A stretch of 64,000 nucleotides of DNA, taken from positions 1,947-65,946 of the IMG/VR virus record IMGVR_UViG_3300034069_000533. The stretch is one strand, 5' to 3'. The notes under the pieces are model-generated. The model was not told the origin of the DNA. It saw only the letters and a list, made by a program, of their open reading frames with translations, and ran no database searches. Positions 1 to 64,000 of this stretch are shown here, piece after piece. This DNA is from a virus. Taxonomy: Duplodnaviria; Heunggongvirae; Uroviricota; Caudoviricetes. The translations under genes and the position numbers were made by a program. How positions within the stretch are numbered: position 1 is the stretch's first letter; each line of letters begins with the position of its first letter.

Positions 1-2
1 TG

Positions 3-497
3 ATGGATGGACGCCGGCTTATCTTCATTGTGGAGGAATTACGGTTTCTGCTGCCGAAGCCGGAATTTACACAGCCGTTTGAAGATATTTTGCTGACCGG
101 ACGAAAGAAAAACGTTTGCTTCTGGCCGGTAATCCAACAGCCTGAGCATCTGTTGACGCACCCGATTGGTACGGCGTTGCTTGGTCAGTGTCGCACGCGG
201 TTCCTGTTTAAGAATGAGCTTGCCAACCGGGCGGCGTACTGCGGCGGGGGCAGCTATGGCGACGGACTGCACGCAACTCCGCAGATTTACCAACAGGTCC
301 GCGAGGGCATGACAACCGGCAAGTGGTCGTTCGTTCTGCAACGGCCAGGAAAAAACTTGCTGTGCCGCTTTGATTTATCTTCAATGCCGGACGCGCTTGC
401 TGTATTCTCAGCGATGCCCAAGAGCATCGCGCTATGGGATAGCATTGCTGAAACCCGGCGCGAGTTTTTAGACAGACTTGACGAAGCAAAAGCTTAA
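3..497 (+). CDS. virB4: VirB4/TrbE-family T4SS ATPase, C-terminal part (5' truncated by window)
   Basis: DGRRLIFIVEE...GRKKN...IQQP...QCRTRFLFKN...RFDLSSM..LAVFS follows the VirB4 C-terminal pattern (DGRP.I..IDE..RKKN..TQ..QC.T..F.N..LDLS.M..LAVLS); lies upstream of other virB genes. Confidence 0.85.
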   Translation: MDGRRLIFIVEELRFLLPKPEFTQPFEDILLTGRKKNVCFWPVIQQPEHLLTHPIGTALLGQCRTRFLFKNELANRAAYCGGGSYGDGLHATPQIYQQVREGMTTGKWSFVLQRPGKNLLCRFDLSSMPDALAVFSAMPKSIALWDSIAETRREFLDRLDEAKA

Positions 498-514
498 AGA
501 GAAGGATAAAATAA

Positions 515-688
515 ATGAAAACGGACAAAGAGCGCATTGCGGAGCTAGAGACAGCATTGCGTATGATTTCTGTTTCTGCTGAGACAGCGCAGTTTGAAGA
601 CGCTATTTACACCACGCCCAAGCAATCGCTTGAAAGCCTGTGTGAAGGAATCCGAAAGAAAGTTAAGGAGACGATGAGCAATGGCTGA
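515..688 (+). CDS. small hypothetical protein (57 aa, MKTDKERIAELE...)
   Basis: ATG at 515 after GAGAAGGA RBS; stop overlaps next start. Confidence 0.6.
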   Translation: MKTDKERIAELETALRMISVSAETAQFEDAIYTTPKQSLESLCEGIRKKVKETMSNG

Positions 689-1037
689 TACCTTACCGCC
701 CGCCCCTTCGCTTATGGTCCGGCCAACTCCGGTGCCTGCCGAGGTTGAGGCGGCGATTGCCGGTTTGCGCACGGCTTGCGACAAGTGGCCGCGCGTATCT
801 GCCGACACGCTGACTGACGCTCAGGCGCGACCGAATTATGCCAACGCTTACTGCGAGGCGGCGCCCGATATTAGTTATTCGTTTAGCGAGGCTGGTTATA
901 TTGGCATTGCTTACGGCGTAGCTCTGGCAATTTTTGGTTATGTAATTTTGCATATGACAATGGCGCTGCTTAATGGTGCTGTCGCTGTGGTCCGTCATGT
1001 GTGGAATAATCGGCAGGAGAAGCACGATGCGGCTTAA
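681..1037 (+). CDS. hypothetical membrane protein
   Basis: ORF with one long hydrophobic segment, coupled to neighbours. Confidence 0.6.
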   Translation: MADTLPPAPSLMVRPTPVPAEVEAAIAGLRTACDKWPRVSADTLTDAQARPNYANAYCEAAPDISYSFSEAGYIGIAYGVALAIFGYVILHMTMALLNGAVAVVRHVWNNRQEKHDAA

Positions 1038-1290
1038 GGCAAGCGGCGCGTACAGCTTCGGTGAGTCCAATACCATGAGCCTTGAGGATGCGGCGGAATC
1101 CGTTTGCCGTGACTTTGGTAGGGATTTATCACTAGAGCGCACGGCGCAAGCGTTCGCGCGACTGGTCAATACCCTGCATTCGCGTGGGCTGTTATCCAGT
1201 TCTGAAATTGAGCAAGTTTTAAACTATGAATTTCAAGTTGTGGAGGGTTGGGCAGATGCGCAAATGCGCGATCATGGCAAGCTTGGCTAA
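1027..1290 (+). CDS. hypothetical protein
   Basis: ATG at 1027 after GGAG; overlapping operon arrangement. Confidence 0.55.
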   Translation: MRLKASGAYSFGESNTMSLEDAAESVCRDFGRDLSLERTAQAFARLVNTLHSRGLLSSSEIEQVLNYEFQVVEGWADAQMRDHGKLG

Positions 1291-1495
1291 CCTGTTGCTG
1301 ACAGCGCAAGCCGACGCGGCGTTGCAGCCCTATGAAGTGGTTTGCGGAAACTGCCCGGCCATAACCGTTGCCGAGATTAACGAAGCTGCCAGGACGGTTG
1401 AGGCGCTGAAAAAGCAGTTGGAGGATTACAACAGGCTCTTAACTGAATACACCAAGCAGCTTGAAACCGTGACAAGGCTAAGGCTAAGGCAATGA
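1274..1495 (+). CDS. hypothetical coiled-coil protein
   Basis: ATG at 1274; stop overlaps virB5 start (ATGA). Confidence 0.5.
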   Translation: MASLANLLLTAQADAALQPYEVVCGNCPAITVAEINEAARTVEALKKQLEDYNRLLTEYTKQLETVTRLRLRQ

Positions 1496-2223
1496 GCGTT
1501 AGAATGATGTTATTGGCGGGCGTGGCTGGCATTGCGCTGGCCTCGCCCGCGCGTGCGCAGTGGATTGTTAATGATCCAATTAACACGCTGGTTGCGCAAA
1601 CTGCTTGGGTAAAGCAGGCTGCCGATATGATCCGGCAGATTGAGGAAATGCAGCGGCAATACCGCATGCTTTCCAGCACCTATAATGCGATTTCCCACGC
1701 GACCGATATTAGCGGTGTGGCGTCAGCGCTTGGTGGCGTTACTCGCACTTACCTGCCGGAAGCCTCTGGCGCCCTGTCGCTGGTCGGGCAGGGCTCGCGT
1801 CTGCTGAGCGGTGCGGGGCGCATTCGCAGCGCTGACACGCTGTTTATGCCGCAAGCCGCCTCTGGCATTCGCTCGCTGGATCGCTGGCGGGATGAAATGG
1901 AGCGGCGGCAGAACGTGACCGCCAATGCCAAGGCGCTGGCTGAGGCCGGCATGATTGACATGGAGCAACGCATAGCCGGGCTAGGTGGCCTACAGGCTGA
2001 GATTAACCGCTCTAGGGACGGCACACAGAGCGCCGCCTATACCAACGCCATCGCGGCCAGCCGGACCAATCTAGAGGCCCACAACGCCAGCGTGGCCAAT
2101 CTGCGGCTGGCCTTGGCGGCGGCGGATCGGACTGACCGCGAGCGCGAGGAACAGATAGCGGTACAGGGCGCATCCAATTGGATGGATGATACGGCTTGGG
2201 CGGTGGAAAGCTTGGGACGTTAA
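1492..2223 (+). CDS. virB5: VirB5/TrbJ-like minor pilin
   Basis: Signal peptide then AQWIVNDP...QAADMIRQIEEMQRQY...YNAIS helical pattern; position between virB4 and virB6. Confidence 0.8.
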   Translation: MSVRMMLLAGVAGIALASPARAQWIVNDPINTLVAQTAWVKQAADMIRQIEEMQRQYRMLSSTYNAISHATDISGVASALGGVTRTYLPEASGALSLVGQGSRLLSGAGRIRSADTLFMPQAASGIRSLDRWRDEMERRQNVTANAKALAEAGMIDMEQRIAGLGGLQAEINRSRDGTQSAAYTNAIAASRTNLEAHNASVANLRLALAAADRTDREREEQIAVQGASNWMDDTAWAVESLGR

Positions 2224-2250: not shown

Positions 2251-2406
2251 ATGGTTTATGTTAATTTTGCTATCTGCTACGCTCTGGCTGTTATTGTTAC
2301 CTACGCTTTCATTATGTTTTTAAATGAATTGGAGGATATTAGACATGCGTTCGATTTTTTGCGCCGCGATCCTCAGCCTTTGCTTATTCCAGAGCGCGAA
2401 GGCTGA
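2251..2406 (+). CDS. small hypothetical membrane peptide (51 aa)
   Basis: ATG after AAGAAGGA RBS; overlaps next gene. Confidence 0.4.
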   Translation: MVYVNFAICYALAVIVTYAFIMFLNELEDIRHAFDFLRRDPQPLLIPEREG

Positions 2407-2719
2407 AGAATTCGATATTAATTGGTTTGTCAGAAACACAGCGGCGCGCATGGAGGCATTGCAGCTATGCCGCGACGATTACCGCAAGGTGCAGTCGCCA
2501 CGCACCGGCCCGATTTGCGCCAACGCTGAGGCAGCGCAAACTCGGCTATTCGCGCGAGAGCAAGGCTCAGCCTTTGGCTTAATGGATCGCCCGGCTTATT
2601 GGGTCCAAAATCCAGAAATGAGCCAGTCCGTTCTTACGGCTTGCGCTCGCCGCGCGTCTTATGACCAACACCTGTTGAGGTATTGCAATGTCGTTAGAAC
2701 CGCGCAAAGCATGAGGTAG
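2345..2719 (+). CDS. entry-exclusion-like exported protein (EexN-like)
   Basis: Signal peptide plus WF...AR..L..C......C.NA..A motif; sits between virB5 and virB6 as eex does in IncN/IncW plasmids. Confidence 0.5.
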   Translation: MRSIFCAAILSLCLFQSAKAEEFDINWFVRNTAARMEALQLCRDDYRKVQSPRTGPICANAEAAQTRLFAREQGSAFGLMDRPAYWVQNPEMSQSVLTACARRASYDQHLLRYCNVVRTAQSMR

Positions 2720-3708: not shown

Positions 3709-4338
3709 ATGAACAAGTTTGTGGCGCCCGTGACGCGCGAGAATCTGCATAGCTTTAAGCTGTTTAAAGTTATTGAGAAGAACAGTGTTTCCGTCGTCGG
3801 TAGCATTTATCGTCTAGCCGAGGACGACGGCAGCAAATGTCCATGGTTTACGCATGTAAGCGGCCCAAGTAATAGTCTTTATCCCCGGCCTGCAATTTCT
3901 CTTTATATGCTTGCCGGGATTGTTGAAGACCAATCCGACGCCAATCTTGCGCTTCAACAGGCGCGTGAGGCGCTAGACGCGGCAGAACGCGCCGTTGCGC
4001 TGGGCTCGGCAGGCGATTGCCAATGCTGGGAGTGCGCTCGCATGAGCGCGCATACTCCTGGCCCGTGGTTGTTTTTTGCAACTGACGGAATTAATGTAGG
4101 CGTAACCACGGAATCCGCAGACATTGCGCATTGTCATGGTTTTTATAAGCCTCGCCGCAGTTGGAATGAAGAAGTCGCCAACGCAAAACTTATGGCTGCT
4201 TCGCCTGATTTGTTAGAGGCTTTGCGTGAAGCTGTGGAATTTGCTGACCAAGATTATCAATGCCTGACTCCGACCGGGCGCAAGATGGTTGATGGTTGGA
4301 AGGCGGCGATTGCAAAAGCAGAAGGCAACACTGAATGA
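3709..4338 (+). CDS. phage hypothetical protein, apparent two-gene fusion
   Basis: C-terminal half HTPGPW...ANAKLMAASPDLLEAL...AIAKAEG is a common phage small-protein pattern; GGGAG precedes in-frame ATG at 4042. Confidence 0.65.
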   Translation: MNKFVAPVTRENLHSFKLFKVIEKNSVSVVGSIYRLAEDDGSKCPWFTHVSGPSNSLYPRPAISLYMLAGIVEDQSDANLALQQAREALDAAERAVALGSAGDCQCWECARMSAHTPGPWLFFATDGINVGVTTESADIAHCHGFYKPRRSWNEEVANAKLMAASPDLLEALREAVEFADQDYQCLTPTGRKMVDGWKAAIAKAEGNTE

Positions 4339-5051
4339 GCGATGACGGATTAACCCCGGAGGAAATTCAGCGCAGCAATGAAGTTGCTGCGCAGTACGTT
4401 GCCATGGATCGCGCCCGCACCCGACGCGAGACGATGAAGACGCTGGCGCTGATCGCGTGCGTCCCATCGGCGGCAAGCGGTTGGGTAATGTGGGCAACGA
4501 AGCCGCGCATTCAGCGCGAGGTTGAGTTTATCCCCATTACGGAAAATGGCGTACCGGCGCTAGCCTATCGGCTGGAAGACTTGCCACCCGAAGCGCGCAA
4601 CGATGCGGCGTTTACAACCGTATGGAATTACGTCTGCTTGCGTGAGGAATACTCATGGGGCATGGCGGAAAAGGCTTATCGCATTGTCTCGCTCATGTCC
4701 GATGATCGCGTAATGAACGAATATCAGGATTTAGTTAATATTAAAAATAAAGAAAGTCCAACGGCTGTCTATGGCCGCGACGCAGTGATTAGCATTGACT
4801 ATGACAGTCACGATGATCTTTCGCCGCCAACCGGATATTCCGGCCCGCCGCCGGGTTACTCCATCCGGTTCCGCCGCACGGTAACATGGCTGAATAAGCC
4901 ACCGGAGCGCGAGCTTTGGATGTGTTCGGTTATGTTTCATCGCAATGTGCCGAAGGTTGATATTCGCCAGAGATACGAGTTTAGTCCGCAATCTATCGTG
5001 GTTTGGCAGTATCCCGGCGCCCGTCCGATTACACCACTGAGAAGGAGATAG
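4335..5051 (+). CDS. virB8: VirB8 inner-membrane T4SS protein
   Basis: Single TM then YVCLREEYSW...Y..V.LMS...V..EY...N..SP pattern. Confidence 0.8.
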   Translation: MSDDGLTPEEIQRSNEVAAQYVAMDRARTRRETMKTLALIACVPSAASGWVMWATKPRIQREVEFIPITENGVPALAYRLEDLPPEARNDAAFTTVWNYVCLREEYSWGMAEKAYRIVSLMSDDRVMNEYQDLVNIKNKESPTAVYGRDAVISIDYDSHDDLSPPTGYSGPPPGYSIRFRRTVTWLNKPPERELWMCSVMFHRNVPKVDIRQRYEFSPQSIVVWQYPGARPITPLRRR

Positions 5052-5282: not shown

Positions 5283-5480
5283 ATGTCTAGTTTTGTTTTT
5301 GGTGTTGGTGTCGGCAATCTCGCCATGGCGCTATTCATTCATGCCGCGACTTCGGTTTCGCGCATCAAGCCTACATGCACGGCGGAAGATCATGAGATTT
5401 CGCGCATGATTGGCGCGAAACTCGGTTGGTTCGGTTTGATGCTTATGGCTGCTGTCTGGAAGGAAGGAATTTTTACATGA
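5283..5480 (+). CDS. small membrane protein
   Basis: Hydrophobic ORF, AAGGGA RBS; stop overlaps next start. Confidence 0.55.
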   Translation: MSSFVFGVGVGNLAMALFIHAATSVSRIKPTCTAEDHEISRMIGAKLGWFGLMLMAAVWKEGIFT

Positions 5481-6127
5481 ACCCGGCCCGCGCTGCGCTT
5501 CTGGCCAGCGCCGCATTTATGTGTATGGCGCTGACTGAGCCTCAGCCCATCCCCGGCGGTGACGTGCGTTACCGCACGGTAGAGTGGCGAGACGGTATTG
5601 TTATTCAGGCTTTCGGCTCGCGCGGCAAAACCATTCTGTTTGAATTGCCGCGCGGCGTTGATGCCGTTGATATTCTGCCGTCCGACCAAGACGTAATAAC
5701 GGGAAAAGTGGCAGAGGCAAGCGGCGTTACCGGCCGGGGTGCCGCCAATCAACCGGACGCGCCCGAAGGCTGCATTGAAACCGCCAACATGCAGATTTGC
5801 ATTAAGAATGATCGGTTTATTGGTATCAAACCAAAGACCGAGCTTCAGGCGCAGCCCATTCCAGTAATGATGGTAAGCGGTGTTAATGGGGCGAATCCGG
5901 TTGAGCGGCAATTCGTTATTGAAATCAGCACAACGGACACGCCTTATTATGTGGTTCGGGTGACGGTGCCGCAGCCCGTGCCCGTACAGCCTCGCCAGCC
6001 GGTTGTCCGGCGGTGGCCAACACAGCCCCGCCCGCCGGTCGCCGCGCCTCCTGTGGAGCTTCCGCCGGTCAACAATGCCTACTCCATCACGGGTGATAGG
6101 GCGCTTTTGGGAGTGCAGGGACGATGA
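5477..6127 (+). CDS. virB9: VirB9 N-terminal part (split gene)
   Basis: Signal peptide, D.RYRTVEW..G.V....G..G.T..F pattern, Pro-rich linker, ends at NNAYSITGD (start of the VirB9 C-terminal domain). Confidence 0.65.
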   Translation: MNPARAALLASAAFMCMALTEPQPIPGGDVRYRTVEWRDGIVIQAFGSRGKTILFELPRGVDAVDILPSDQDVITGKVAEASGVTGRGAANQPDAPEGCIETANMQICIKNDRFIGIKPKTELQAQPIPVMMVSGVNGANPVERQFVIEISTTDTPYYVVRVTVPQPVPVQPRQPVVRRWPTQPRPPVAAPPVELPPVNNAYSITGDRALLGVQGR

Positions 6128-6480
6128 AGCTAGCCATTCTGGCCGGGGCGCTGGTTTTGGCCGCATGTTCCAGCACCAAGCCGTTGGTTGCGCCGCCATG
6201 CCCGGAAGGCGAGGGCGCGGCGCTGAATGCCGAGGGTCCGGCCCCGGTTGTTTGGGACAACGCGCATTGGACGTTTCTGCGCTTTTCCGGGCATCAATCC
6301 TTCCCGAAGGTCACAGCATTGCGGCCAGACGGCAATGAGCGCGACGTATCTTCTTCGCCCAATCCTGACACCGGCATTATTACCGTGCATGGCGTTTTTC
6401 CAACGTTGGTTTTGCGCGAAGGCGAGCGTGTTGCCTGTGTTAAAAACAATGCGTTTGATCCTTATGGTAAGCGGCCATAA
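6124..6480 (+). CDS. VirB7-like lipoprotein fused to VirB9 C-terminal domain
   Basis: Lipobox LAAC15, PPC26..LN as in VirB7, then P.VWDN..WTFLRF...P.V...DG.E..V...VHGV...VLR.G..VAC105VKN typical of the VirB9 CTD. Confidence 0.7.
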   Translation: MKLAILAGALVLAACSSTKPLVAPPCPEGEGAALNAEGPAPVVWDNAHWTFLRFSGHQSFPKVTALRPDGNERDVSSSPNPDTGIITVHGVFPTLVLREGERVACVKNNAFDPYGKRP

Positions 6481-6698
6481 TGGATAAAGAAAAGCGCGTT
6501 ATGGCAATTGCTAAGGAAGTTGCCGAGGCTGCGTTATCTGGCGCGGTTGATCGCGTGCATAATCTTTCGCTGCAAGACAAGCTGATTTTGCTTGGTCTTG
6601 ATCCCGAAGATTATGCAATTGTGCTGCGACAGCAGGAAGGCGCCGATGAGCCGCTAAGTTGGAAAGACTGGCTAGATTTCGCAGAGAGGGAAAAATGA
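6480..6698 (+). CDS. hypothetical protein
   Basis: TAATG/ATGA overlaps with both neighbours. Confidence 0.55.
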   Translation: MDKEKRVMAIAKEVAEAALSGAVDRVHNLSLQDKLILLGLDPEDYAIVLRQQEGADEPLSWKDWLDFAEREK

Positions 6699-7741
6699 GC
6701 GAGAATAATGACGACAAGTCAGTAAATGACGGCAAGCCAACCGGGTTCATGGGCAGCGGTAGCGGCGCCGGTTATATTTTGGCTGCCATTGGCGCCGCCG
6801 CTGGCTTGGCGTGGTTCATGTGGGGTGGCCCTAGCCGGGCGCCGGCCCCGCAGGAGGCAGGACAGGTGCGGCCGGGCACTCCGGGGCGCCCGTTCGTGCC
6901 GCCTCCCCCGCCAGCGCAGGCAGAGGCGCCGCGCGATCCGCCGGCCGATCCACGCCCTAGAGACGCGGGCGAGGGCGCAGGACGGCCCCGCGCCTCGCCT
7001 ATGGTGCTGAGCGTCCGGCGCGAGCGCCCGGCCCCTACGGGCACGGCTGCGCAGCAGGAACCGAAGCCAGAGACGGTGGCGGGCATGCCGGTGCTGACTG
7101 CCGACATGGTAGCCGACGCGGAAAACTTTCTGATGCCGGGTGACAAGCTTTCCTGCCTCAGCGCTGAGCCGTTGGAAGGCAAGGCGGATGGCGTGGCGTT
7201 TACCACAGAAATTAATGAAGATTTTATTGGGCGCGGCAATGCATGGCCTCCGCTTATTCCTAAAGGCTCTCTTGCATTTGGCCGGGTGTCACGCGTGGCA
7301 GAGGATGGCGACGAACGTATTGCCGCCGCGCTGACGCTTATTCGCGGCCCGTCCGTCATTGGGCGCCCGACCCTCATGGTGCCGCTTGGCGATGCGCAGC
7401 CGGGCGAGCCATTAGGCGACGCTGGATTGCGCGCCAATGTCGAGACGCGGTTTTGGGCGCGGCTTGGCACGGTTGCCGCTTACGCTGGTCTAGATGCGGT
7501 TGGCCGGATCGGGTCCAGCTTAGCCGGTAACGCCATCAATGAAGGCTTAAGCGGCGGTGGCCGGACTAATATCAATGTCGGCAATTTCGGCGGCATGGCA
7601 TCCGGCCGGTCGCTAGCCGGATCAGCATTCGATCATGAGCTAAGGCGCGGCCCGCGCTTGTCGCGCCCGCAGGCGCAGCCCTGCACTATCTTTATCACCA
7701 AGCCAATTCGCGTGCGCGGCACGCCACAGCGCGGGAGATAG
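6695..7741 (+). CDS. virB10: VirB10/TrbI T4SS core protein
   Basis: N-terminal TM, Pro-rich stalk, L.PG..L.C...LIPKGS..G...G.AG....V..RFWAR domain, P.L..PQ.....I...KP.. end. Confidence 0.85.
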   Translation: MSENNDDKSVNDGKPTGFMGSGSGAGYILAAIGAAAGLAWFMWGGPSRAPAPQEAGQVRPGTPGRPFVPPPPPAQAEAPRDPPADPRPRDAGEGAGRPRASPMVLSVRRERPAPTGTAAQQEPKPETVAGMPVLTADMVADAENFLMPGDKLSCLSAEPLEGKADGVAFTTEINEDFIGRGNAWPPLIPKGSLAFGRVSRVAEDGDERIAAALTLIRGPSVIGRPTLMVPLGDAQPGEPLGDAGLRANVETRFWARLGTVAAYAGLDAVGRIGSSLAGNAINEGLSGGGRTNINVGNFGGMASGRSLAGSAFDHELRRGPRLSRPQAQPCTIFITKPIRVRGTPQRGR

Positions 7742-9259: not shown

Positions 9260-9260
9260 C

Positions 9261-16132: not shown

Positions 16133-16159
16133 AAAGCGCCGCAAGGCGCTTTTTTTTTT
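16133..16159 (+). terminator. intrinsic terminator (GCAA loop family)
   Basis: AAAGCGCC-GCAA-GGCGCTTT plus T-run. Confidence 0.9.
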
Positions 16160-16161
16160 GC

Positions 16162-16190: not shown

Positions 16191-16216
16191 GGTGTCGTTG
16201 AGAAGGAAGCAGGCAA

Positions 16217-16627: not shown

Positions 16628-16631
16628 TTAC

Positions 16632-16656: not shown

Positions 16657-16660
16657 GTGC

Positions 16661-49413: not shown

Positions 49414-49429
49414 TTAATTATCCCTTATA

Positions 49430-50782: not shown

Positions 50783-50794
50783 TTCTGCGTCCTT

Positions 50795-52917: not shown

Positions 52918-52918
52918 T

Positions 52919-53919: not shown

Positions 53920-53928
53920 TTATTTATC

Positions 53929-56007: not shown

Positions 56008-57800
56008 TGCGTCGCAGCCTCAACACGCGGCATGGATACGCCTAGACCGCTGGCAAAGCTACCGCCGAGCCGGACGGCGTTCGCTTCATTGGCTCGATTA
56101 ACCCCGCTCTGTGTAGCAGAAGCGACGGAAGCCGGATCAGAGCCGGGCGCATTAACCGTAATATCATTCTGATTGGTAATGGTCTGCGACACGCCGGCGC
56201 CGTTGCGACCAATGGAGCCGGACATATCAGGAATGCGCGTATTAAATGCGCCATAATCAAAATCGCTACGGTATCCGTCAATGGCAAGTCCGCTACGCAA
56301 GCCGCCGCGACGTGGGCCAGCCGCCGCGCCCTCAGCGGTGCTAGTATCGCCACCGCCGCCCATGCCGATCTTGTCCATAAGCCAACCGACGCCAGAGCGC
56401 ACGCCGTTAAAGACAAACATCGCTTTTTCATAAAACTGCGTGATCTTTGCAATAATATTGTCAAATACGCCGGCAAAGAAATCAGCTAGCGGCGCAAACG
56501 CTACCTTCAATTGCTCAACAACGCCCGCTAACCATTCAAACTGCGGACGCATCCGCTCCATTTGTTCATTCCATGTATCCGCAATTAGCTGCGGAATGGC
56601 CATGAACCAAGCTTTAAATTCTTCAAACTTAACTTTTAAGCCGTCAAGAATTTTGGAAAATTCGCCAAAGCGATCCCCGAACAAGGAATCGCCACCACGA
56701 AGCCAAGTAATAAAATCCTCAACAATTAAAATCCATGCCAACGCCCCCACAATCGGCAGGAAGGCAACCAGCACGGCGCGACCAAACGCCATGGCGCCAG
56801 CCGCCAGCGCGCTAAACAGCGCCGGCACCGACGCCAACAGTGACGGGCCAAACAGCACGATTGCGGCGGCAGCGACAATGCGCAACACCGCTTCCAGCCC
56901 GCCAAGGCTCTGGACAAAATCACCAACAACGCGGATGCCGCTACGCCAGGAATCTAGCGTATGCGAAATATACAAAAAGATACGGGCAACTTTATCGCTT
57001 AGCCCAAGCGTGCGATCAATCTCAGCCAAAAAGCGTTTAGCAGAATTGGTCAGAATTTGATATGCACGGCTCATGCCAATAGGAAAGTTGGCAAGCTCTT
57101 TTCGTGCTGCCGCGCTTGCCTGCATCATGGCCGGCACAAACAAGTCAACCGTCATCTTTCCTTTGGTGACGGCCTCGTTGAATTCCTTGCGCGTCATGCC
57201 CAAGGCTTTAGTAATGTCATTCAGGAAGCGCGGCATATTATCGCGCAACGTATTTAATTCTTCCGCCTGAAACTGGCCAGAGCCTAGCGTCTGGCCAAGC
57301 TGGACCATGCTCTCTTTTAGATTTTCCGCGCTAACTCCTGCAACAATACCGGCAGCCTGTAAGCCTTCAATCAGGTCAACCGTATCGGTCGCCGGGCGCT
57401 TAAGCTCCTGCATCGCCATGTTAAAGCGGGTAAATGCTTGCGCGCTCTCATCCGCGCTAACGCCCGTACGCGTGCCAATCTGATAAAGTTTATCATAAAT
57501 ATCCGCTGCTTCCGTGGCGGATGTGGCGCTGCGCCCAATGCTGCTTTCAATCTGTTGCAGCGAACCGTTCATTTTGTCGCCAGCTTGAGCGATGGCGACG
57601 GGAATTCCGGCAACAGCTTGGCCAATTCCGGTGGCAATGTTGGCCATCATATTGCCAACAGCGGTGCCAACGGCTGTGCCAATAGCTACAGAGGCGGCAA
57701 CCGCGCGTCCCTGTAGCTGATTAAGCGTATTGTTAAATTGAGTGGCGCCAGCCTGATTGACTTGGAAGCCTAAGAGGGCCACTAACTCCGAGACGATAAT
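56004..57800 (-). CDS. tape measure protein (probable ATT start)
   Basis: IVSELV.LLGF N-terminus, QL.Q.LGSG..Q.EE.N...DN.P tape-measure motif; AGGAG 9 nt before ATT at 57800. Confidence 0.85.
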   Translation of the reverse strand: MIVSELVALLGFQVNQAGATQFNNTLNQLQGRAVAASVAIGTAVGTAVGNMMANIATGIGQAVAGIPVAIAQAGDKMNGSLQQIESSIGRSATSATEAADIYDKLYQIGTRTGVSADESAQAFTRFNMAMQELKRPATDTVDLIEGLQAAGIVAGVSAENLKESMVQLGQTLGSGQFQAEELNTLRDNMPRFLNDITKALGMTRKEFNEAVTKGKMTVDLFVPAMMQASAAARKELANFPIGMSRAYQILTNSAKRFLAEIDRTLGLSDKVARIFLYISHTLDSWRSGIRVVGDFVQSLGGLEAVLRIVAAAAIVLFGPSLLASVPALFSALAAGAMAFGRAVLVAFLPIVGALAWILIVEDFITWLRGGDSLFGDRFGEFSKILDGLKVKFEEFKAWFMAIPQLIADTWNEQMERMRPQFEWLAGVVEQLKVAFAPLADFFAGVFDNIIAKITQFYEKAMFVFNGVRSGVGWLMDKIGMGGGGDTSTAEGAAAGPRRGGLRSGLAIDGYRSDFDYGAFNTRIPDMSGSIGRNGAGVSQTITNQNDITVNAPGSDPASVASATQSGVNRANEANAVRLGGSFASGLGVSMPRVEAATQ

Positions 57801-57815
57801 GGCGGCGCACTCCTA

Positions 57816-57959
57816 TTAGGTTTTATTCATTGCCGCATTCTGCAATGCAATTTCATGGTCAAGCAGGCTGTTGATTTTAATAATATCTAATAGATCACAA
57901 ACGCCCGTTTTAACCTCAGTCAACGTCACCTTGCCTGCGGTAATCGGGCGCCAAACCAT
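57816..57959 (-). CDS. small tail assembly chaperone partner
   Basis: WRP...G..T..E......L.D....N.LLD; start overlaps upstream TAA. Confidence 0.65.
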   Translation of the reverse strand: MVWRPITAGKVTLTEVKTGVCDLLDIIKINSLLDHEIALQNAAMNKT

Positions 57960-58447
57960 TAATTCGGGGATAAACTCTGGCCGGAATTGCCCGACAGGTT
58001 TGCTTTCCGAAGAAGCGCCCCCGCCGGTCCAGTAGGGGACGCCAGCCGGGCTAGAACCTCCGCGAAGTTGTAAGAGACAACCGCCCAACACAACATGAGC
58101 AAATCACCGGGCGTCAGCCCGCGCCGCAACGCCTCATTGGCATCCAACTTGGATGGCTGTTCACCCGGCCCGGCAATAGAAATGCAGTTCGGATCAATCA
58201 GCACGGTCGCCAAACGCCGAAGCTCTTTGCCGTCAACCTCACCGGCTAGGTTGCTCAGCGCGGCCATAAGCTTGGCGCGGTTTTCTTCCTCGCTGCCGCC
58301 TTCCTTACCGTCAACCACGGAAAGAAATGGACGGACAAAGCGCTTTTGCAGATCACCTAAAACTTCCAGCGCATAAAACGGATCAAAGCGGCGAATATAA
58401 CAAGTATATTCGCCAATCTGATGCTCATACCGCGACAAATCAGCCAT
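57959..58447 (-). CDS. tail assembly chaperone
   Basis: Position between tube and tape measure genes. Confidence 0.7.
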   Translation of the reverse strand: MADLSRYEHQIGEYTCYIRRFDPFYALEVLGDLQKRFVRPFLSVVDGKEGGSEEENRAKLMAALSNLAGEVDGKELRRLATVLIDPNCISIAGPGEQPSKLDANEALRRGLTPGDLLMLCWAVVSYNFAEVLARLASPTGPAGALLRKANLSGNSGQSLSPN

Positions 58448-58884
58448 TAAAGATTACCACCCACGATAAAGATAGATGGCTGCGCCGTGACAAACTGCCA
58501 AGTCCGGTTGCCGATTCCGCTGCCGAAACCGATGGCCGGACGCTTGGCGATCCAAGCTTGCGCCGCCATGAACATGGTTCTACCGCGCAAATCCTGCACC
58601 ATAAAGGGGAAAATCAGCCCGCCGTTGACACCATCCGCCTCTAGCAGCCCGCTTAGGTAGTCGTTAAAAGCGGAGGTCTGCAATAGCGCCATATCAACGG
58701 TAAAACATTTGTTGGTATTCAGCGCGCGGGCAATCTCGCCATTAGCGCCAACCTTAAACGAAGAAATATCAGCGACGGGCGCAATGTTAATAAAGTTGTC
58801 TTCGTCAAGCCCGGTCGCGGGAACGCCCATAACCAAGGCTAAAACCTTGGATGGGTCGTAAGTCGTTACAACGCTGCCGCTCAT
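58447..58884 (-). CDS. tail tube protein (DUF3277-like)
   Basis: TYDP.KV, G...D.FI, VGA.GE, L.QTS..N..L, GIG.R.W.F. Confidence 0.85.
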   Translation of the reverse strand: MSGSVVTTYDPSKVLALVMGVPATGLDEDNFINIAPVADISSFKVGANGEIARALNTNKCFTVDMALLQTSAFNDYLSGLLEADGVNGGLIFPFMVQDLRGRTMFMAAQAWIAKRPAIGFGSGIGNRTWQFVTAQPSIFIVGGNL

Positions 58885-58924
58885 TGGTATAATTCCTTAA
58901 TTCTATTGGCTAGAAAATAATTCA

Positions 58925-59995
58925 TTAACCAATGTTATCGTAGGTCAGGACTCCGTCAATTACGGTTGAATGAATCGAACCGGCAAGACGGGCGCTAAAC
59001 TTAACATCACGCAAAATGCGCGCCTGCTTATCTTCCTTGGACACCGAAGATGCCAGCGGCACGGAAATGGTAAAGCTAGGAATAATAACGTTGGGGTCGT
59101 CAGCGTCGCGCTCTGGCGGGGCAATGCCTCCGCGCCGCACACCAAGGTCAAGCGCTTGGTGAATCGCCTGCCGGATCATAGCAATTCCGTCATCGGTATA
59201 CGGAATACGCCGATTGACCTTCAGGTTAAACACACGGACGCGAATTTCTTCGCAGAGCCAATTATAAAACCGGATAACGTCAATCCACTCGCCGCTAGGC
59301 GTAACGCCATTCTGCGTAATAGCGAGATTGCGGAACGTCTCGTAAGTGTTGCCGTTTTTATTCGTGATGTTGATATAAGCGCCCTCAACCATCGGCGGCG
59401 CAGTCACGCCAACAAGAGTCTGATCCGCCCAATCCTCACCGCCGGGAAGCGTTTGAAACAGCTTCGCCATAATGGCCACTTCGGGGAATTCATCGGAATT
59501 GGCGTTGTAGAACCAAAACCCCTGATCCCAAGCACTCGCCATCAGCGCGGTCGCTGGCTCATCGCCAGTCGTGGAAGTCACATCAACATCGTCAATGACG
59601 GCGCCGAAAAGCTTTTGGTTAGCCTGCGACCACGCGAAAGCGCCGGGAAGATCGGCCGGGGCGTGCGATACTTCGCAAAAGCCGTACCACTCGTTATTGA
59701 CCGCAGAGCAAGCCGCCAGCATGGCGGTAACGCTTTCCGCATTGTCGCGCCGCAGCAAATAAACCTTAGCCGGGCGCGGCTTCTGCGAAAAAGCAACCTG
59801 AAGCGCCTTATACATATCGGACGTGGTTGCGAGGCTATATGGCGCAATCAGCACGTCATCCGCATCCGTCACCACGCTAACGCGGTCTGGATGGGTAAAC
59901 ACACCGGCAAGCGCCATTTCGCTAAACGAATAGCCCTCAACGCCACGGGACTGAAGCGTAATATTAACGCGGACAATGCGATCAATTTTTGCCAC
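58925..59995 (-). CDS. contractile tail sheath protein (DUF3383-like)
   Basis: I..IV.V.I, F.Q.P.P...Y, WYG, PG...W..Q.L.GV, SGEWID, IPYTD.G. Confidence 0.88.
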   Translation of the reverse strand: MAKIDRIVRVNITLQSRGVEGYSFSEMALAGVFTHPDRVSVVTDADDVLIAPYSLATTSDMYKALQVAFSQKPRPAKVYLLRRDNAESVTAMLAACSAVNNEWYGFCEVSHAPADLPGAFAWSQANQKLFGAVIDDVDVTSTTGDEPATALMASAWDQGFWFYNANSDEFPEVAIMAKLFQTLPGGEDWADQTLVGVTAPPMVEGAYINITNKNGNTYETFRNLAITQNGVTPSGEWIDVIRFYNWLCEEIRVRVFNLKVNRRIPYTDDGIAMIRQAIHQALDLGVRRGGIAPPERDADDPNVIIPSFTISVPLASSVSKEDKQARILRDVKFSARLAGSIHSTVIDGVLTYDNIG

Positions 59996-60009: not shown

Positions 60010-60303
60010 TTAGCTCTCAGGGTCCACGTTAGAAGGCGTGACCACAAAAAAAGATTTACCAGCTACGGGAGTTGGAGTTTGACACTCAAACCGCATTTCC
60101 CATCGCCCGACTGAATCCGGTAAAAAATCCATGGAAAACTTACCGGCTTCCATAATTAAATTAAATTCTGTTCTTTCGTCGTCTGGACTTTTTAAAATAA
60201 GTTTGGCGTCGGCAGAGTTAATTGGCAACCCGTTGTCATCCGATAGCGAACCATAAAGCTTTACTAAATTGCCAATTAAAACATAATCCGGTCTTACATT
60301 CAT
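60010..60303 (-). CDS. small Ig-like structural protein
   Basis: ...G.W..R.E pattern; operon position. Confidence 0.55.
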   Translation of the reverse strand: MNVRPDYVLIGNLVKLYGSLSDDNGLPINSADAKLILKSPDDERTEFNLIMEAGKFSMDFLPDSVGRWEMRFECQTPTPVAGKSFFVVTPSNVDPES

Positions 60304-62798
60304 GGCGTAACTCCGGGGATACAGGCATCAACCCGGTTGGTTTTTGCCTCAACGCCAAGGGCAACCGACATTTTAGTTTGCATACCCATCGCAACCAAGC
60401 CTTTAGGCGTTACGCAAAGCGAAAGAGTGATACCGGGCGCCGTGCCGGTTGTGGATACTCGCCCGCCGATGAATGCGCCCGGCTTCAACCAGCTAGCGCC
60501 GTCCAGCAACGTGGAACGCTCAGTTACGAAGGTAGCAGCGTCAAACATTAGCGGCGCGACAAAAGCGGCGCCTTCATGATTGACATAAAGCCAAAGGCTA
60601 AACTCGCCGCCTTCAAAAGTCGGGCTTTCCAGATATTCAGCGCCGGGCAAAATAGCCTGCTGCTGCACAAGCGCCGGGCCGGACGCAAAGGCAGCGTCAG
60701 ACTCCAGCGCAAACCCGCCAGGGATCGCCACACGCTGGCCGGTAGCCGCGCCGGGCGCCCATGTGGGGCTGAAGGTCCAAGAGGTCCCTGACAGCGGCGC
60801 ACGGCGCACGGCAGAGGCATTGCCGGCCTGCCAGGACAGCGGGGCGCTAAGTTGCGCATTGCCACCCAAGCCGTTGCGGGTCGCCTGCGTCCCGCCGAAG
60901 CTGGCCGACATGGGAGCCGTGAGACTAAATCCCGGCTGGATCGCAGCCAGCCCAATCAAAGCAGCGCCGCCCTGCCAGGATGGTGCGGAGGTCCAGTTTC
61001 CGGCGGCTAGGGAGGCTTGTCGCTGTGCTACGGTAGTGCCAACCGTCCAAACCGGCTGAGCCTCTAGGAACGCGCCTCCGGGCGCCGCTTGCCGGATCGC
61101 GGACACCGCCCCTGCCGCTAATGTGGGGAGTGAGGTCAGGGTGAAGCCGTCACCGCTGTAAAGCTGATTGACGACGAACGCGCCCGGCACCCAAGTTGGC
61201 GCCGCGCCGGTCAGCGTGTAGCCACTGGCCGTGATGCGTTGCGCCGCATTCACCGTGCCGGGCGCGAAGTTCTGCCCGCTGGTCAGCGCGTATCCGGGCT
61301 GCGAAGCGAATTGGAATGCCTGAGCCGCACCGGGCGCGAAACTTTGCGCGCTGGTTAGGGAATAGCCATAGGCATTAACAGCGGCCACGGAACCAACCGC
61401 GCCGGGCGTAAAGCTCATATTCGCGGTCAGCGAATAGCCATTGACGCTGGCAATCTGATAAGCCAAAGCGGCGCCGGGCGCCCAAGTCTGATTGCTGGTC
61501 AACGCAAATCCGCTGATAGCGGCCATGCGAAATGCATTTACTGCGCCGGGCATCAAGGTCTGCGACGAAGTTAGCGCATAGCCGGTAATGCTGACGATTT
61601 GCGCACTCGACGTAGAGCCGGGCGCAAAGCTTGGGCTGCTAGTCAGCGCGTAGCCGGATTGCGTGACAAGCCGCGTAGCCAGCGCGGCGCCGCCTGCAAA
61701 GGTCTGCGTTCCGGTCAGCGAATAGCCGGATGCTGTGACAATGCGTTGCGTGGTGACGACGCCGGGCGCCCAAGTCTGTGAGGCGGTTAGCGCATAGCCG
61801 GAAGGAATAGCAATTTGCCACGCCGTCACGGCGCCGCCAACAAAGGTTGGGGCGGGCGTGCCGGTTACGGAATTTGCCGGAAGCGAGGAATTGGCAGGAT
61901 CGCTAGAATTTGCGCCGCCGTATCCAGTAAAGGCGACAGGTAAAGAAAATCCAGCTAAATTAACGTTTACAGCATTGCTTTTTACCCACAACGCACGCCT
62001 GCGCCGTGGCTGCATAATGGACCAACGATCCAAACGCCACTCGTCAAGCTCAGCATCAGCAAGCGAGCGATTCCAATACCACGCCTCTAAAATATTGGCG
62101 TTGGCATAAGAATCTTGGAAGCCGGCATAAGAGCGGCTTCCCAACCCTTCGTTTTGAAGCGGGAAATTTCCTAGTGCGCTTTGCGTCGTGGTCGCTGTGG
62201 TAACGGAACCAACGACAAATCGCCCGGTGTCCGGCTCCCAAAAATTAATTCGGCCCGTTGTCGGGCTATCCATTGTCGCAGTAATAAATACCATTTTACC
62301 GGCGGTTAACCCTTCCGCCGTGCTGACAACAAGCACGGTTGAGCTATTATCGCCGGTTAAAAAATAACGAACACGATCAACGTTGGCGTCAATATGGAAG
62401 CGAGCATTATTGCTGCTGTTATTATTAAAATTATAATAAATTTGATATTGCCCGGTAGCTGCGACCACGTTTGGTCGCACAACCACAGCAAATGATCCGA
62501 CAGGATTAATGTCAGGACGAAATACACTAGATGGATTTTTTAAGCCAAAATTGCTGCTACCGTTAAAATTAGCGCCAACGCCAAAATCAGTCGGCGTTAG
62601 TGTTGGGGTCGCGCCAGCACTGGAAAACGTCATGTCGCCCGGCACGGATTCGGGCGCAATATTAACAATACCGTTGCCGGCCATAGCCAGCGACGGCACC
62701 CATAAAGAAGTCAATCCTAAAGCAAGCGGGCTATCTTGGTCAATTACGCCCAATTCGGATGGGGTAATTAGTCCGCTTGGCCTTCTGATGAATGCCAC
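60300..62798 (-). CDS. LamG/concanavalin-like domain plus many ~24-aa GY.LT...F.PG repeats (fibre-like)
   Basis: ...W.RSL.DAE...W end of LamG-like domain; regular repeats such as SGYALTASQTWAPG. Confidence 0.65.
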   Translation of the reverse strand: MAFIRRPSGLITPSELGVIDQDSPLALGLTSLWVPSLAMAGNGIVNIAPESVPGDMTFSSAGATPTLTPTDFGVGANFNGSSNFGLKNPSSVFRPDINPVGSFAVVVRPNVVAATGQYQIYYNFNNNSSNNARFHIDANVDRVRYFLTGDNSSTVLVVSTAEGLTAGKMVFITATMDSPTTGRINFWEPDTGRFVVGSVTTATTTQSALGNFPLQNEGLGSRSYAGFQDSYANANILEAWYWNRSLADAELDEWRLDRWSIMQPRRRRALWVKSNAVNVNLAGFSLPVAFTGYGGANSSDPANSSLPANSVTGTPAPTFVGGAVTAWQIAIPSGYALTASQTWAPGVVTTQRIVTASGYSLTGTQTFAGGAALATRLVTQSGYALTSSPSFAPGSTSSAQIVSITGYALTSSQTLMPGAVNAFRMAAISGFALTSNQTWAPGAALAYQIASVNGYSLTANMSFTPGAVGSVAAVNAYGYSLTSAQSFAPGAAQAFQFASQPGYALTSGQNFAPGTVNAAQRITASGYTLTGAAPTWVPGAFVVNQLYSGDGFTLTSLPTLAAGAVSAIRQAAPGGAFLEAQPVWTVGTTVAQRQASLAAGNWTSAPSWQGGAALIGLAAIQPGFSLTAPMSASFGGTQATRNGLGGNAQLSAPLSWQAGNASAVRRAPLSGTSWTFSPTWAPGAATGQRVAIPGGFALESDAAFASGPALVQQQAILPGAEYLESPTFEGGEFSLWLYVNHEGAAFVAPLMFDAATFVTERSTLLDGASWLKPGAFIGGRVSTTGTAPGITLSLCVTPKGLVAMGMQTKMSVALGVEAKTNRVDACIPGVTP

Positions 62799-62801
62799 GG
62801 A

Positions 62802-63275
62802 TTAACCCGCAATGCTCTCAGTGGACAGACGATACTTAACTAGATTGCCGCTGGCGGCGAGCGCCACGCCAGAGCGGTTAATCACTGCCAGCTTATACTT
62901 GCGCGCCTGAATTGGCACCAAAGAGCTAAGCTGTGTCTGTGCGTTAGATGCTTTGGTATTCAGAGCAATGGCAGCGTAGGGACCGTTTTGCCAACGGGCT
63001 TGGTTGCCTGCGGTCGCGCCATCATCGCCGGTCGCATAAGTGCCAGCGGTGGAAGTCTCTGGAATAAGAAAAACAATAATATTAGCGCCGTTGGTCGGGC
63101 TAAGAGCGGCTAGCGATACTTCAAATTCAGCATACAGCCACGCGCCGGCAGAGTTATCAATCTGCGGCGCGGTCAGCGTTGACGTGAATTGCGAGCCGTT
63201 GGCTAGTGAGTTTAAATCGGACGTGCCGACAGCGGCAGTCCAAGCGCCTTGGACAACTTGGCTTACAGCACCCAT
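62802..63275 (-). CDS. phage structural protein
   Basis: L.SLANG, IDNS, I.....KYK....N.SG..LAASGN. Confidence 0.6.
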   Translation of the reverse strand: MGAVSQVVQGAWTAAVGTSDLNSLANGSQFTSTLTAPQIDNSAGAWLYAEFEVSLAALSPTNGANIIVFLIPETSTAGTYATGDDGATAGNQARWQNGPYAAIALNTKASNAQTQLSSLVPIQARKYKLAVINRSGVALAASGNLVKYRLSTESIAG

Positions 63276-63291
63276 AATTATTGCGCCTTAA

Positions 63292-63711
63292 TTAATTTGG
63301 ATCATCCAACGCAACTACCATGGCAAAATCGGTCCAATTGCGCAGCCAAGCCGCGCCAATATCAACCGACTCCATAGCTCCCGCCGGATTAGATTCGTCA
63401 CTAACCACAGCGAAAGCAATGTCTGGCGCCTGCAACAGCGCCAACGCCAAGCGCCGCCGATTGATCTTCTGCTGTAACACCTTCAGCGCCAAATTCATTC
63501 GGGCGGTAATCTGCCCGGTGTCAAGCGCTGGCTCAGTTGGCTCGCCCGGCAGCAGGTTCCCACCGGATTGCAGAATGCCCATGGCAATCCGCATGCCGGC
63601 CATTTCTGCCACATCCTGCACCGCCTCAGAACGCGACGCGGCGGCAAGCTTCAGATAGGGCGGCTGGCCGGGTACGGGCGCCGCAACGGCCAACGCTTCG
63701 GTTTCGGACAT
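63292..63711 (-). CDS. hypothetical protein
   Basis: AAGGA RBS, late operon. Confidence 0.55.
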   Translation of the reverse strand: MSETEALAVAAPVPGQPPYLKLAAASRSEAVQDVAEMAGMRIAMGILQSGGNLLPGEPTEPALDTGQITARMNLALKVLQQKINRRRLALALLQAPDIAFAVVSDESNPAGAMESVDIGAAWLRNWTDFAMVVALDDPN

Positions 63712-63723
63712 AATTGCGTCCTT

Positions 63724-64000
63724 TTACGGAATTGGAATCGTCAGCGTGCTAGCCGCGACCGAGAATGTGCCGCCATTGCTGGCAATTTGGTCGGTCGTGA
63801 AATCCACATAACCAACGGCAAAATCGTTAGCGGCAGTGCCGGTGCTGACATAATAGACCAGCCCGCGTGCGGTCAAAGTCTGGCCGGCGGCAGTCGTCCA
63901 TTGCACCGCGCCAAGCTGAAACGTCAGCCGATCATTAGCATTATCCAGAGTGACAGTAACGGTTGCCGCAACGCCGCCAGTGGCGTAGCCGTTGCCCGCC
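63724..64000 (-). CDS. phage structural protein, 5' truncated by window
   Basis: TLTARG.V.Y..TGTAA..F.VGY.DF..D.....GTF. Confidence 0.65.
   Translation of the reverse strand, partial: AGNGYATGGVAATVTVTLDNANDRLTFQLGAVQWTTAAGQTLTARGLVYYVSTGTAANDFAVGYVDFTTDQIASNGGTFSVAASTLTIPIP

Follow-up and report, generated by a model that had tools for sequence, protein, structure and literature searches.

Mating-channel and relaxase genes share a circular 129.8-kb genome with a contractile-tail phage module, and their junction recurs in related contigs

We analyzed a 64,000-bp stretch of viral DNA (hereafter the window), which spans positions 1947-65946 of the single 129,946-bp contig IMGVR_UViG_3300034069_000533, together with the circular genome to which it belongs. 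Coordinates refer to the window unless they are marked as genome positions. The window carries a type IV secretion system (T4SS) with mating-pair formation (MPF) genes of the MPF-T class, a MOBF relaxase, and the tail and lysis genes of a contractile-tailed phage. The first and last 141 bp of the contig are identical, which closes it into a 129,805-bp circle with no Ns, and the window makes up about half of this ~130-kb genome. In IMG/VR it is classed as viral and as having direct terminal repeats, and its CheckV completeness is 100%. G+C content is 54% and level along the genome, and no housekeeping or chromosomal genes were seen on the circle. Neither tyrosine (PF00589) nor serine (PF00239) recombinases, the families of integrases and resolvases, had a match in the genome, and duplicated att-like seams were not found; family-library scans covered ~90 of the ~218 open reading frames (ORFs). 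The closed circle excludes a chromosomal context. With no integrase and no second replicon found, it bears out the view of the initial annotation that this is one element, not an integrative and conjugative element lying beside a prophage.

The initial annotation had listed part of virB4, virB5, virB6, and virB8 through virB11, together with virD4, a relaxase with YY and 3H motifs, and an eex-like gene. Pfam, NCBIfam, and motif searches recovered the channel, coupling-protein, and relaxase genes, and a secreted protein does occupy the Eex position. The mating-channel genes and the genes inserted among them are as follows.

1-497, plus strand: C-terminal 164 amino acids (aa) of VirB4, whose gene begins 1,944 nt before the window (60-63% identity to VirB4 of relatives L032, L015, and L031)
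1492-2223, plus strand: VirB5-like minor pilin (PF07996, E value 2.7e-18)
2324-2719, plus strand: small secreted protein of 131 aa with a signal peptide, at the Eex position between virB5 and virB6, kept in L015, L017, L018, and L020
2722-3639, plus strand: VirB6 (NCBIfam PRK13852, E value 7e-9, below cutoff; homologs in L017, L018, and L020 have PF04610, TrbL)
4335-5051, plus strand: VirB8 (PF04335, E value 2.5e-14)
5426-6480, plus strand: VirB9 as two ORFs, N-terminal (5426-6127) and C-terminal CagX (6124-6480; PF03524, E value 1.6e-8)
6659-7741, plus strand: VirB10 (PF03743, E value 2e-11)
8410-8919, plus strand: SpoU-type RNA methylase, inserted in the T4SS operon (PF00588, E value 7.5e-13)
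8900-9259, plus strand: HNH endonuclease, inserted in the T4SS operon (PF14279/PF01844, E value 5e-12)
9234-10226, plus strand: VirB11 ATPase (PF00437, E value 2.7e-7; 50-53% identity to VirB11 of relatives)
10561-11907, plus strand: RtcB RNA ligase in the gap between virB11 and virD4 (PF01139, E value 8.8e-62)
13831-15570, plus strand: VirD4 type IV coupling protein (PF02534, E value 1.2e-78; also PF12696 and PF10412; 43-44% identity to VirD4 of Acetobacteraceae plasmids)

The remaining channel genes complete this set across the junction of the circle. VirB4 is encoded by an uninterrupted 813-aa frame (PF03135, 75 bits), and VirB1, VirB2, and VirB3 lie upstream of the window start. VirB1 and the transglycosylase of Rhodovastum atsumiense plasmid RHOApf share 44% identity. 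The assignments of VirB2 (TrbC, E value 8e-5) and VirB3 (E value 0.016) come from matches below the Pfam cutoffs, and VirB3 is 54% identical to the product of the gene preceding virB4 in L032. Thus VirB1 to VirB11 (VirB7 excepted), VirD4, a MOBF/TrwC relaxase, and a TraL/VirC1-like gene are all present on one replicon, and the relaxase, coupling protein, VirB4, and MPF-T set of a CONJscan-style definition are accounted for, with VirB7 not found. The protein at the Eex position weakly resembles the annotated EexN lipoprotein found at the same position on Roseomonas plasmid p3-AD3 (31% identity over 59 aa, E value 1e-3). The N-terminal ORF of VirB9 is 42% identical to its counterpart in L015 and 24% identical to the N-terminal half of VirB9 in L020, where the gene is unsplit. 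L015, L017, and L031 also have VirB9 in two ORFs, which points to a conserved arrangement and not to decay. A protein with a ribosomal L7/L12 C-terminal domain lies between virB3 and virB4 (genome 129430-129789; L005:5031-5390), and the domain appears again between virB6 and virB8 in the unrelated MPF set of L018 (L018:4776-5129).

The genes for processing and recruiting DNA lie further along the window, in two divergent operons separated by a short intergenic region.

27018-29036, minus strand: MOBF (TrwC-type) relaxase of 672 aa (PF08751, E value 1e-29)
29036-31715, minus strand: small genes upstream of the relaxase and in the same orientation, putatively relaxosome accessory genes, with partial homologs in L015 and L017
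31149-31715, minus strand: HNH endonuclease (match to the HNH region)
31716-31886, no strand: divergent intergenic region of 171 bp with TGTCGC/TGTC repeats and a hairpin, candidate origin of transfer (oriT)
31887-32693, plus strand: TraL/VirC1-like protein of the SIMIBI class, MinD/ParA fold (ESM Atlas feature score of 0.97 and TM score of 0.85 to ParA/MinD clusters)
33815-34420, plus strand: conserved membrane protein of the TraL-like operon, with a hydrophobic segment (39-40% identity in L015, L017, and L018; 28% in L020)

The relaxase retains its catalytic motifs, with YY at residues 19-20 and a 3H motif of the form HHTTR...LHFHH. It is 39-42% identical to the relaxases of L015, L017, and L018 and 31% identical to MobF of p3-AD3. 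In the intergenic region, TGTCGC/TGTC repeats spaced ~10 nt apart begin at 31735, 31745, 31768, 31778, and 31788 and are followed by an imperfect 33-nt hairpin. Identical repeats occur in L015, and TGTCAC repeats occur in L020. Given this structure and a location that separates the relaxase operon from the TraL-like operon, also seen on p3-AD3, the region is probably the oriT.

The first gene of the divergent operon encodes the best-conserved protein of its neighborhood, with 68% identity in L015, L017, and L018. An AlphaFold2 (AF2) model of the protein (pLDDT 75) matched MinD, FleN, SRP54, BcsQ, and ParA in Foldseek. We considered whether it could be a partition ATPase and rejected that assignment, since a homolog lies inside the transfer module of p3-AD3, where it adjoins mobF (38% identity, E value 5e-35). 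Because p3-AD3 has a RepA and a ParA of its own at other sites, we read the protein as a relaxosome component, presumably akin to TraL of RP4 and VirC1 of Agrobacterium. In all five homologs compared, an invariant P-loop variant, GRGN(S/V)GGTT, replaces the deviant Walker A motif KGGxGK(S/T). Having neither signature lysine, the protein may have altered or lost nucleotide hydrolysis.

The rest of the window is a phage module. An operon with sheath, tube, tape measure, baseplate, fiber, and endolysin genes had been proposed at the outset. PHROG matches support the structural assignments, with two corrections: the endolysin is better placed at 36216-37562, and 55315-56007 encodes a Dit-like protein.

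35385-36212, minus strand: peptidase-like protein (phrog_16701 among the PHROG matches of 35385-37562)
36216-37562, minus strand: likely lysin of 448 aa with a C-terminal SLT transglycosylase domain (PF01464, E value 6.5e-12)
37575-49131, minus strand: tail fiber and receptor-binding genes (PHROG tail-fiber matches; 41-63% identity to, and collinear with, L021 and L022)
38807-41320, minus strand: 837-aa fiber with a GH16-like C-terminal domain
44837-48091, minus strand: 1084-aa fiber
49147-55312, minus strand: baseplate region (phrog_587, phrog_6, phrog_120, and phrog_196, E values down to 2.6e-64; 51-64% identity to L022 and 43-51% to L027)
50795-51457 and 51457-52917, minus strand: baseplate wedge proteins
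52919-53272, minus strand: sheath initiator
53269-53919, minus strand: spike/apex protein
53929-55044, minus strand: hub
55315-56007, minus strand: Dit-like protein (from the Pfam names of L027 homologs)
56004-57782, minus strand: tape measure protein (TMP; PHROG match)
58447-58884, minus strand: tube (PHROG match)
58925-59995, minus strand: sheath (PHROG match)
60300-62798, minus strand: 832-aa LamG-like protein between sheath and neck genes, missing from the corresponding place in L027 (viral Laminin_G_3 clusters as an ESM Atlas lead)
62802-64000, minus strand: first neck and tail-completion genes of a set that runs past the window into the head module

The PHROG matches across 55315-59995, a segment that includes a chaperone gene, were to phrog_3336 (E value 4.6e-43), phrog_280 (E value 1.2e-34), and phrog_205 (E value 3.2e-82). 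Relatives have a GH108 lysin at the position of the lysin, and neither a holin nor a spanin was identified. The 832-aa protein had no Pfam or PHROG match and may be a neck or whisker fiber or a decoration protein. Two of the neck-region genes (62802-63275 and 63292-63711) had no family match; farther on, at genome 66104-67910, lie genes with 36-48% identity to a set in L027 to which the tail terminator belongs.

The searches of reference collections returned little. Megablast of both window halves against plasmid and phage collections gave no match, and tblastn of VirD4 and the major capsid protein (MCP) against deposited phages gave nothing above 38% identity. In IMG/VR, VirD4 queries (single sequence and profile) found no relative and MCP matches reached at most 40%; a VirD4 profile search of GTDB species genomes returned only distant matches of at most 39%; and the MCP matched six distant, non-mobilizable records among plasmids. 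No sequenced isolate with this hybrid emerged from the phage, plasmid, and GTDB searches. A collection of 5.8 billion proteins, by contrast with these, contained VirD4 homologs with 53-72% identity on metagenome contigs.

The longest related contig, from Logan accession SRR29757557, is 112,865 bp, and we walked 46 kb of it. Its genes run from the baseplate hub through the spike, sheath initiator, wedges, and fibers to a GH108 lysin, a methylase, and the TraL-like gene, followed by the relaxase, VirD4, VirB11 through VirB2, and then small genes of early type, of which two match genes of the present genome. The junction of T4SS, relaxase, lysin, and fibers is also present in SRR30199791 (45 kb) and in NCBI assembly GCA_040384025.1 (30.7 kb), while the closer contigs ERZ1300039 (VirD4, 72% identity) and SRR33230314 (VirD4, 63%) share T4SS or accessory genes. 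Relatives with the same synteny, which the initial annotation had suggested looking for, therefore exist in independent contigs, and the recurrence of the junction in independent assemblies indicates a real lineage, not an assembly accident. Compared with the 112.9-kb relative, nine proteins for the T4SS and DNA transfer (Dtr) have a mean identity of ~51% and fourteen tail proteins ~49%. These values are about equal, which suggests that the two modules diverged together.

The relatives also indicate how the module has changed. Between L018 and L015, identity is high for VirD4 (88%), TrwC (84%), the TraL-like protein (99%), and the lysin (85%), and falls to just 28-31% for VirB5, VirB8, VirB10, and VirB11. 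This pattern indicates that the pilus and channel set of L018 was swapped wholesale for a distant MPF-T set by modular recombination with another T4SS. That the set was replaced and not lost argues that a working channel is under selection. The T4SS operons of all relatives carry phage-style inserts (HNH, DUF551, DUF4379, RtcB, and SpoU). Together, inserts of this kind in the present operon (RtcB, SpoU, and HNH) and the MPF swap in one relative suggest long residence in phage genomes, maintained by selection.

Two further contigs were evaluated as candidate hybrids. A 112,674-bp contig from JGI (L027/L029) was rejected, as it consists of a ~45-50-kb phage or prophage followed by non-phage genes, with no T4SS beside the fibers. 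A 110-kb JGI contig (L020/L030) was not counted: the 32 kb examined contained no structural genes, its G+C content is 66%, and its 1,440-aa MobF is plasmid-like.

Composition is uniform across the modules. TCGA is the most avoided 4-bp palindrome, with an observed/expected ratio of 0.34 genome-wide, 0.22 in the T4SS, 0.32 in the accessory region, 0.23 in the tail module, and 0.42 in the remaining segments; the avoidance first noted in both halves of the window thus extends to every segment (0.22-0.42). Correlations of tetranucleotide z-scores were 0.66-0.80 between the T4SS and phage segments, 0.61-0.79 among phage segments, and 0.06-0.47 against unrelated loci. The modules therefore have no seams: they are uniform in TCGA avoidance and tetranucleotide usage and are without recombinases. 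GTAC (0.59) and GGCC (0.68) are likewise underrepresented over the whole genome, and avoidance of the three palindromes together suggests that several host restriction systems have exerted pressure.

In our assessment, strong sequence evidence for the unity of the element comes from its conserved synteny, from the equal divergence of its two modules, and from an oligonucleotide usage that is uniform. Two other links that had been put forward are real and carry little weight as linking evidence. The first is the set of GCAA-loop terminators, which includes the hairpin at 35360. GCAA is the commonest loop among perfect tetraloop hairpins (16 in the genome versus at most 4 for any other loop), and these hairpins cluster at 16.1-27.0 kb and 35.0-35.4 kb, with a few in the early region. 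The second is a pair of GH16 paralogs at 18 kb and 39 kb: the free-standing gene and the C-terminal domain of the 837-aa fiber are 31% identical (E value 2e-15). The features concerned are as follows.

16133-27013, no strand: variable accessory region with GCAA-loop terminator hairpins, not in L015, L017, and L018, where virD4 abuts the relaxase
16217-16627: DUF7448 gene of the accessory region
18098-18664, minus strand: free-standing GH16-like gene of the accessory region (PF00722, E value 2.5e-4)
35360-35385, no strand: bidirectional terminator hairpin between the convergent transfer and late units (11-bp stem, GCAA/TTGC loop)

Small proteins of the RTX type, with calcium-binding repeats, recur beside the T4SS in this lineage. 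Those of the window (18789-19262 and 21395-22099) had no family match themselves, and their relatives (HemolysinCabind) lie at L016:3620-4054, L016:6540-7163, L031:11955-12575, and L032:5181-5789.

The other half of the genome completes the phage. The initial annotation had looked to a closed genome for further components; terminase, portal, capsid, virB1, virB2, virB3, and a primase-helicase were all found there, and a plasmid rep was not recognized. PHROG matches identify the large terminase, portal, HK97-type capsid, and protease (phrog_38, E value 1.5e-86; phrog_146, 2.4e-71; phrog_264, 6.3e-68; phrog_530, 6.2e-78), and the genes for the MCP, protease, MuF-like protein, portal, and large terminase all lie in L002. 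The large terminase (1082 aa; L002:9175-12423, genome 74174-77422) is of a different type from that of L027, which lacks a T4SS. It is intact apart from two inteins (two PF14890 matches), which sit at the Walker B and Q-TRWH motifs and have canonical junctions (C...VHN|C and C...SHN|T). The genome encodes five tRNAs (Leu-TAA, Leu-TAG, Pro-TGG, Tyr-GTA, and Gln-TTG) at L002:6103-6488 and L003:14858-14932, with four of the genes clustered in the head module, where the protease gene and the MuF-like gene flank them. The window itself matched neither tRNAs nor any other Rfam family.

The other ~52 kb resemble the early region of a large phage. Replication and recombination genes include a primase-helicase (DUF3987), SF1 and SF2 helicases, and a Cas4-like exonuclease, with no DNA polymerase among the large ORFs; HNH and GIY-YIG endonucleases are also present. 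Candidates for counterdefense are Acb3, an inhibitor of the CBASS defense (genome 105214-106044, E value 1e-75), a NADAR protein (genome 108550-109128), and a YspA-type SLOG protein (genome 104220-104645). The set of RNA repair and modification genes is unusually full: in addition to RtcB and SpoU in the T4SS operon, there are RlaP (genome 81201-82013), Ro60/TROVE (genome 96266-97699), and a Thg1-like protein (genome 103390-104223). A 151-nt tRNA-like Rfam match directly upstream of Ro60 (L003:11181-11331) may be a YrlA-type Y RNA. A pair encoding an SPFH/Band-7 protein and an NfeD/S49-type protease (L003:15399-18005, genome ~100.1-102.7 kb) is associated with membranes and is unusual in a phage early region.

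With moderate confidence, we interpret the element as a contractile-tailed phage with a circular 129.8-kb genome and a built-in, long-standing, vertically inherited conjugation module, which would be able to move both as a virion and by conjugation. On the best reading of the relatives, the lineage already had a complete conjugation module before its known members split and has kept it since. DNA would then have two exits from the cell. By the first, the terminase would package the DNA, tails would join the capsids, and the SLT lysin would free virions that rely on recognition of a receptor by their fibers. By the second, in a living carrier cell, the relaxase would nick the oriT, probably at 31716-31886; the TraL-like and small accessory proteins would dock the relaxosome to VirD4; and a single strand would pass through the VirB channel into a touching cell, with no need for the phage receptor.

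Several points weigh against this interpretation. The evidence for dual transfer is sequence-based. VirB7 was not recognized among the scanned ORFs, and the VirB2 and VirB3 matches fall under the Pfam cutoffs. The relaxase lacks the fused SF1 helicase of TrwC and TraI, with the relaxase domain alone detected in its 672 aa; a fused helicase is present in the L020 relaxase and in plasmid MobF proteins (1,112-1,440 aa), and this genome has a separate SF1 helicase (AAA_30/UvrD_C) at genome 109863-111245. The repeat array of the candidate oriT is not in the equivalent intergenic region of L017 and L018, and no nic site was identified. No head genes were recovered from the other T4SS-bearing contigs. 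The nearest relatives of the head and tail genes that lack a T4SS are about 45-60 kb in size (MCP 46-47% and sheath 54-57% identity), and their MCP, cement, protease-scaffold, and TMP have nearly the same lengths as those encoded here. These smaller relatives, with capsid proteins of nearly the same length, cast doubt on a capsid capacity of 130 kb. Finally, no partition gene, replication initiator, integrase, or CI/S24 repressor was detected that could account for persistence in a living donor. Searches for ParA/ParB, Rep_3, and RPA (PF02195, PF13614, PF01656 above its cutoff, PF01051, and PF10134) had no match, although small ORFs outside the scans could hide novel systems; the one ParA-fold protein recognized is that of the transfer module, and no CI-type repressor (HTH_3 or S24) was recognized in the genome.

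The lack of a classical lysogeny module could be taken further. It is possible, though unlikely in our judgment, that the element is no lysogenic plasmid but a phage that is virulent or maintained in a carrier state, and that conjugation from the infected cell serves as a second route of infection. The T4SS would then deliver the full genome to cells in contact that are without the fiber receptor or otherwise resist adsorption, where a productive cycle or persistence would follow. Were this true, host range would be decoupled from receptor recognition, and the lineage would rank as the first "conjugative phage" known to be vertically inherited.

Rather unlikely, in turn, is that a true phage uses the T4SS and relaxase for some end other than self-transfer, such as mobilizing other DNA, delivering proteins, adhesion or aggregation by pili, or relaxase-primed rolling-circle replication. 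Such a use would fit a genome in which no maintenance or lysogeny genes were found, so that a long-lived donor state is not evident, and whose remaining gene content is like that of a virulent phage; it would also fit an oriT that is a candidate without a mapped nic site and a relaxase that has no helicase domain. But the whole Dtr set, made up of VirD4, the TraL-like protein, a relaxase whose catalytic motifs are present, and a repeat-bearing intergenic region, moves together and co-diverges with the MPF genes, as on self-transmissible plasmids, and the gene at the Eex position has been retained, which is sensible only if the element itself enters cells by conjugation.

We regard as improbable a third alternative, a conjugative element whose phage module no longer moves it whole. 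The capsid would hold ~50-60 kb, fragments would be packaged in the manner of a gene transfer agent or the particles would be defective, and the intact 130 kb would travel by conjugation only. The sizes of the relatives are compatible with this: those without a T4SS are small and have capsid, cement, scaffold-protease, and TMP genes of equal length, the T4SS-bearing genomes are 113-130 kb, and the terminase is unlike that of L027. Capsid T number can, however, change within one capsid family, and the head, neck, tail, baseplate, fiber, and lysin genes are intact and diverging at the same rate as the T4SS. The large terminase keeps its two inteins with canonical splice junctions, and the five tRNAs, Acb3, NADAR, RNA repair genes, homing endonucleases, primase-helicase, and Cas4-like exonuclease look like those of an active phage; IMG/VR and CheckV likewise treat the record as a complete virus.

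A recent cointegrate (a prophage in a plasmid or a plasmid-phage fusion) or an assembly chimera is effectively excluded by these sequences and, even though sporadic fusions such as Escherichia coli p1002-1 are known (bioRxiv 10.1101/2025.03.14.643293) and the contig comes from a short-read metagenome assembly, we give it a very small probability: the junction recurs at ~50% protein identity in no fewer than three further assemblies, which differ in sample and source, the modules are equally diverged and uniform in TCGA avoidance and tetranucleotide signature, phage-type genes flank the T4SS operon on both sides and sit inside it, and there is no recombinase, second replication or partition set, or duplicated att-like seam.

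Phages and conjugative elements are seen as two separate solutions to the problem of transfer, with opposite trade-offs: burst size versus donor survival, a receptor-limited versus a broad host range, and a limit on capsid size versus none. A conserved lineage with both machineries would let experiments test switching between the two modes in one element. It would also reveal whether a phage can use conjugation to evade resistance at the receptor and reach a wider range of hosts, and how selection keeps ~20 kb of T4SS genes under the constraint of capsid size. Binary classifiers of viruses and plasmids can file such hybrids as plain viruses. Such a lineage also bears on how host ranges inferred from metagenomes are read.

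Each part of the element has known counterparts. The structural module belongs to a family of myoviruses and prophages with DUF2184 (PF09950) capsids and DUF3383 (PF11863) sheaths, about 45-66 kb and mostly 45-60 kb in size, that includes L027/L029, Pseudomonas phage POR1, and prophages of Acetobacteraceae and Granulibacter. The genes are collinear with L027/L029 from portal to baseplate, at 41-62% identity. Compared with this family, the present genome is 2 to 2.7 times larger, has another type of terminase with two inteins, and has the extra 832-aa gene beside the sheath. The conjugation module follows the fibers here, where L029 has a lysozyme and non-phage genes.

R388 and pKM101 are the archetypes of MPF-T/MOBF conjugative plasmids. 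The nearest cultured relatives of the conjugation module are ordinary conjugative plasmids of the Acetobacteraceae, namely p3-AD3 of Roseomonas mucosa and RHOApf of Rhodovastum atsumiense. They share the order virB1-B2-B3-B4-B5-(eex)-B6-B8-B9-B10-B11-virD4, after which come a mobF operon on the opposite strand and a divergent operon led by a SIMIBI-fold gene, and identities to them are 43-44% for VirD4, 32-44% for VirB1, 38% for the TraL-like protein, and 31% for the relaxase. Unlike these plasmids, the element has a phage backbone and no RepA, ParA, toxin-antitoxin, or metal-resistance cargo. It also differs in its helicase-less relaxase, in its VirB9 as two ORFs, in its RtcB, SpoU, HNH, and L7/L12-domain gene inserts, and in the 11-kb accessory block that parts virD4 from the relaxase. 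The kinship of both modules with Acetobacteraceae suggests that the host is probably an Acetobacteraceae-like alphaproteobacterium, for which a G+C content of 54% is low for the family.

With phage-plasmids such as P1, N15, and SSU5, the element shares a circular, apparently non-integrated genome and a mixture of phage and plasmid-type functions. Described phage-plasmids have replication and partition genes, and none is conjugative (PMC12282955; PMC7969092); the founding survey screened for conjugation genes with CONJscan (PMC7969092). The pattern here is the reverse, with full conjugation genes and no recognizable partition gene or replication initiator. A review from 2025 states that the combination of a tailed phage and a full conjugation apparatus was not found, and a preprint from 2026 makes only brief mention of "conjugative phage-plasmids," as something that causes misclassification. 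Accretions do exist in which one molecule carries both virion genes and conjugation machinery; they include p1002-1, a fusion of a conjugative plasmid and a phage-plasmid (bioRxiv 10.1101/2025.03.14.643293), conjugative megaplasmids with prophages, and tandems of a phage and an integrative and conjugative element. Those are recent or site-specific unions whose parts keep their own integrases and replicons and also occur separately. In the lineage described here, by contrast, there are no seams or recombinases, composition is uniform, the junction is conserved, and the modules have co-diverged. The parts belong to known families; what is new is their seamless, conserved, and co-diverged combination.

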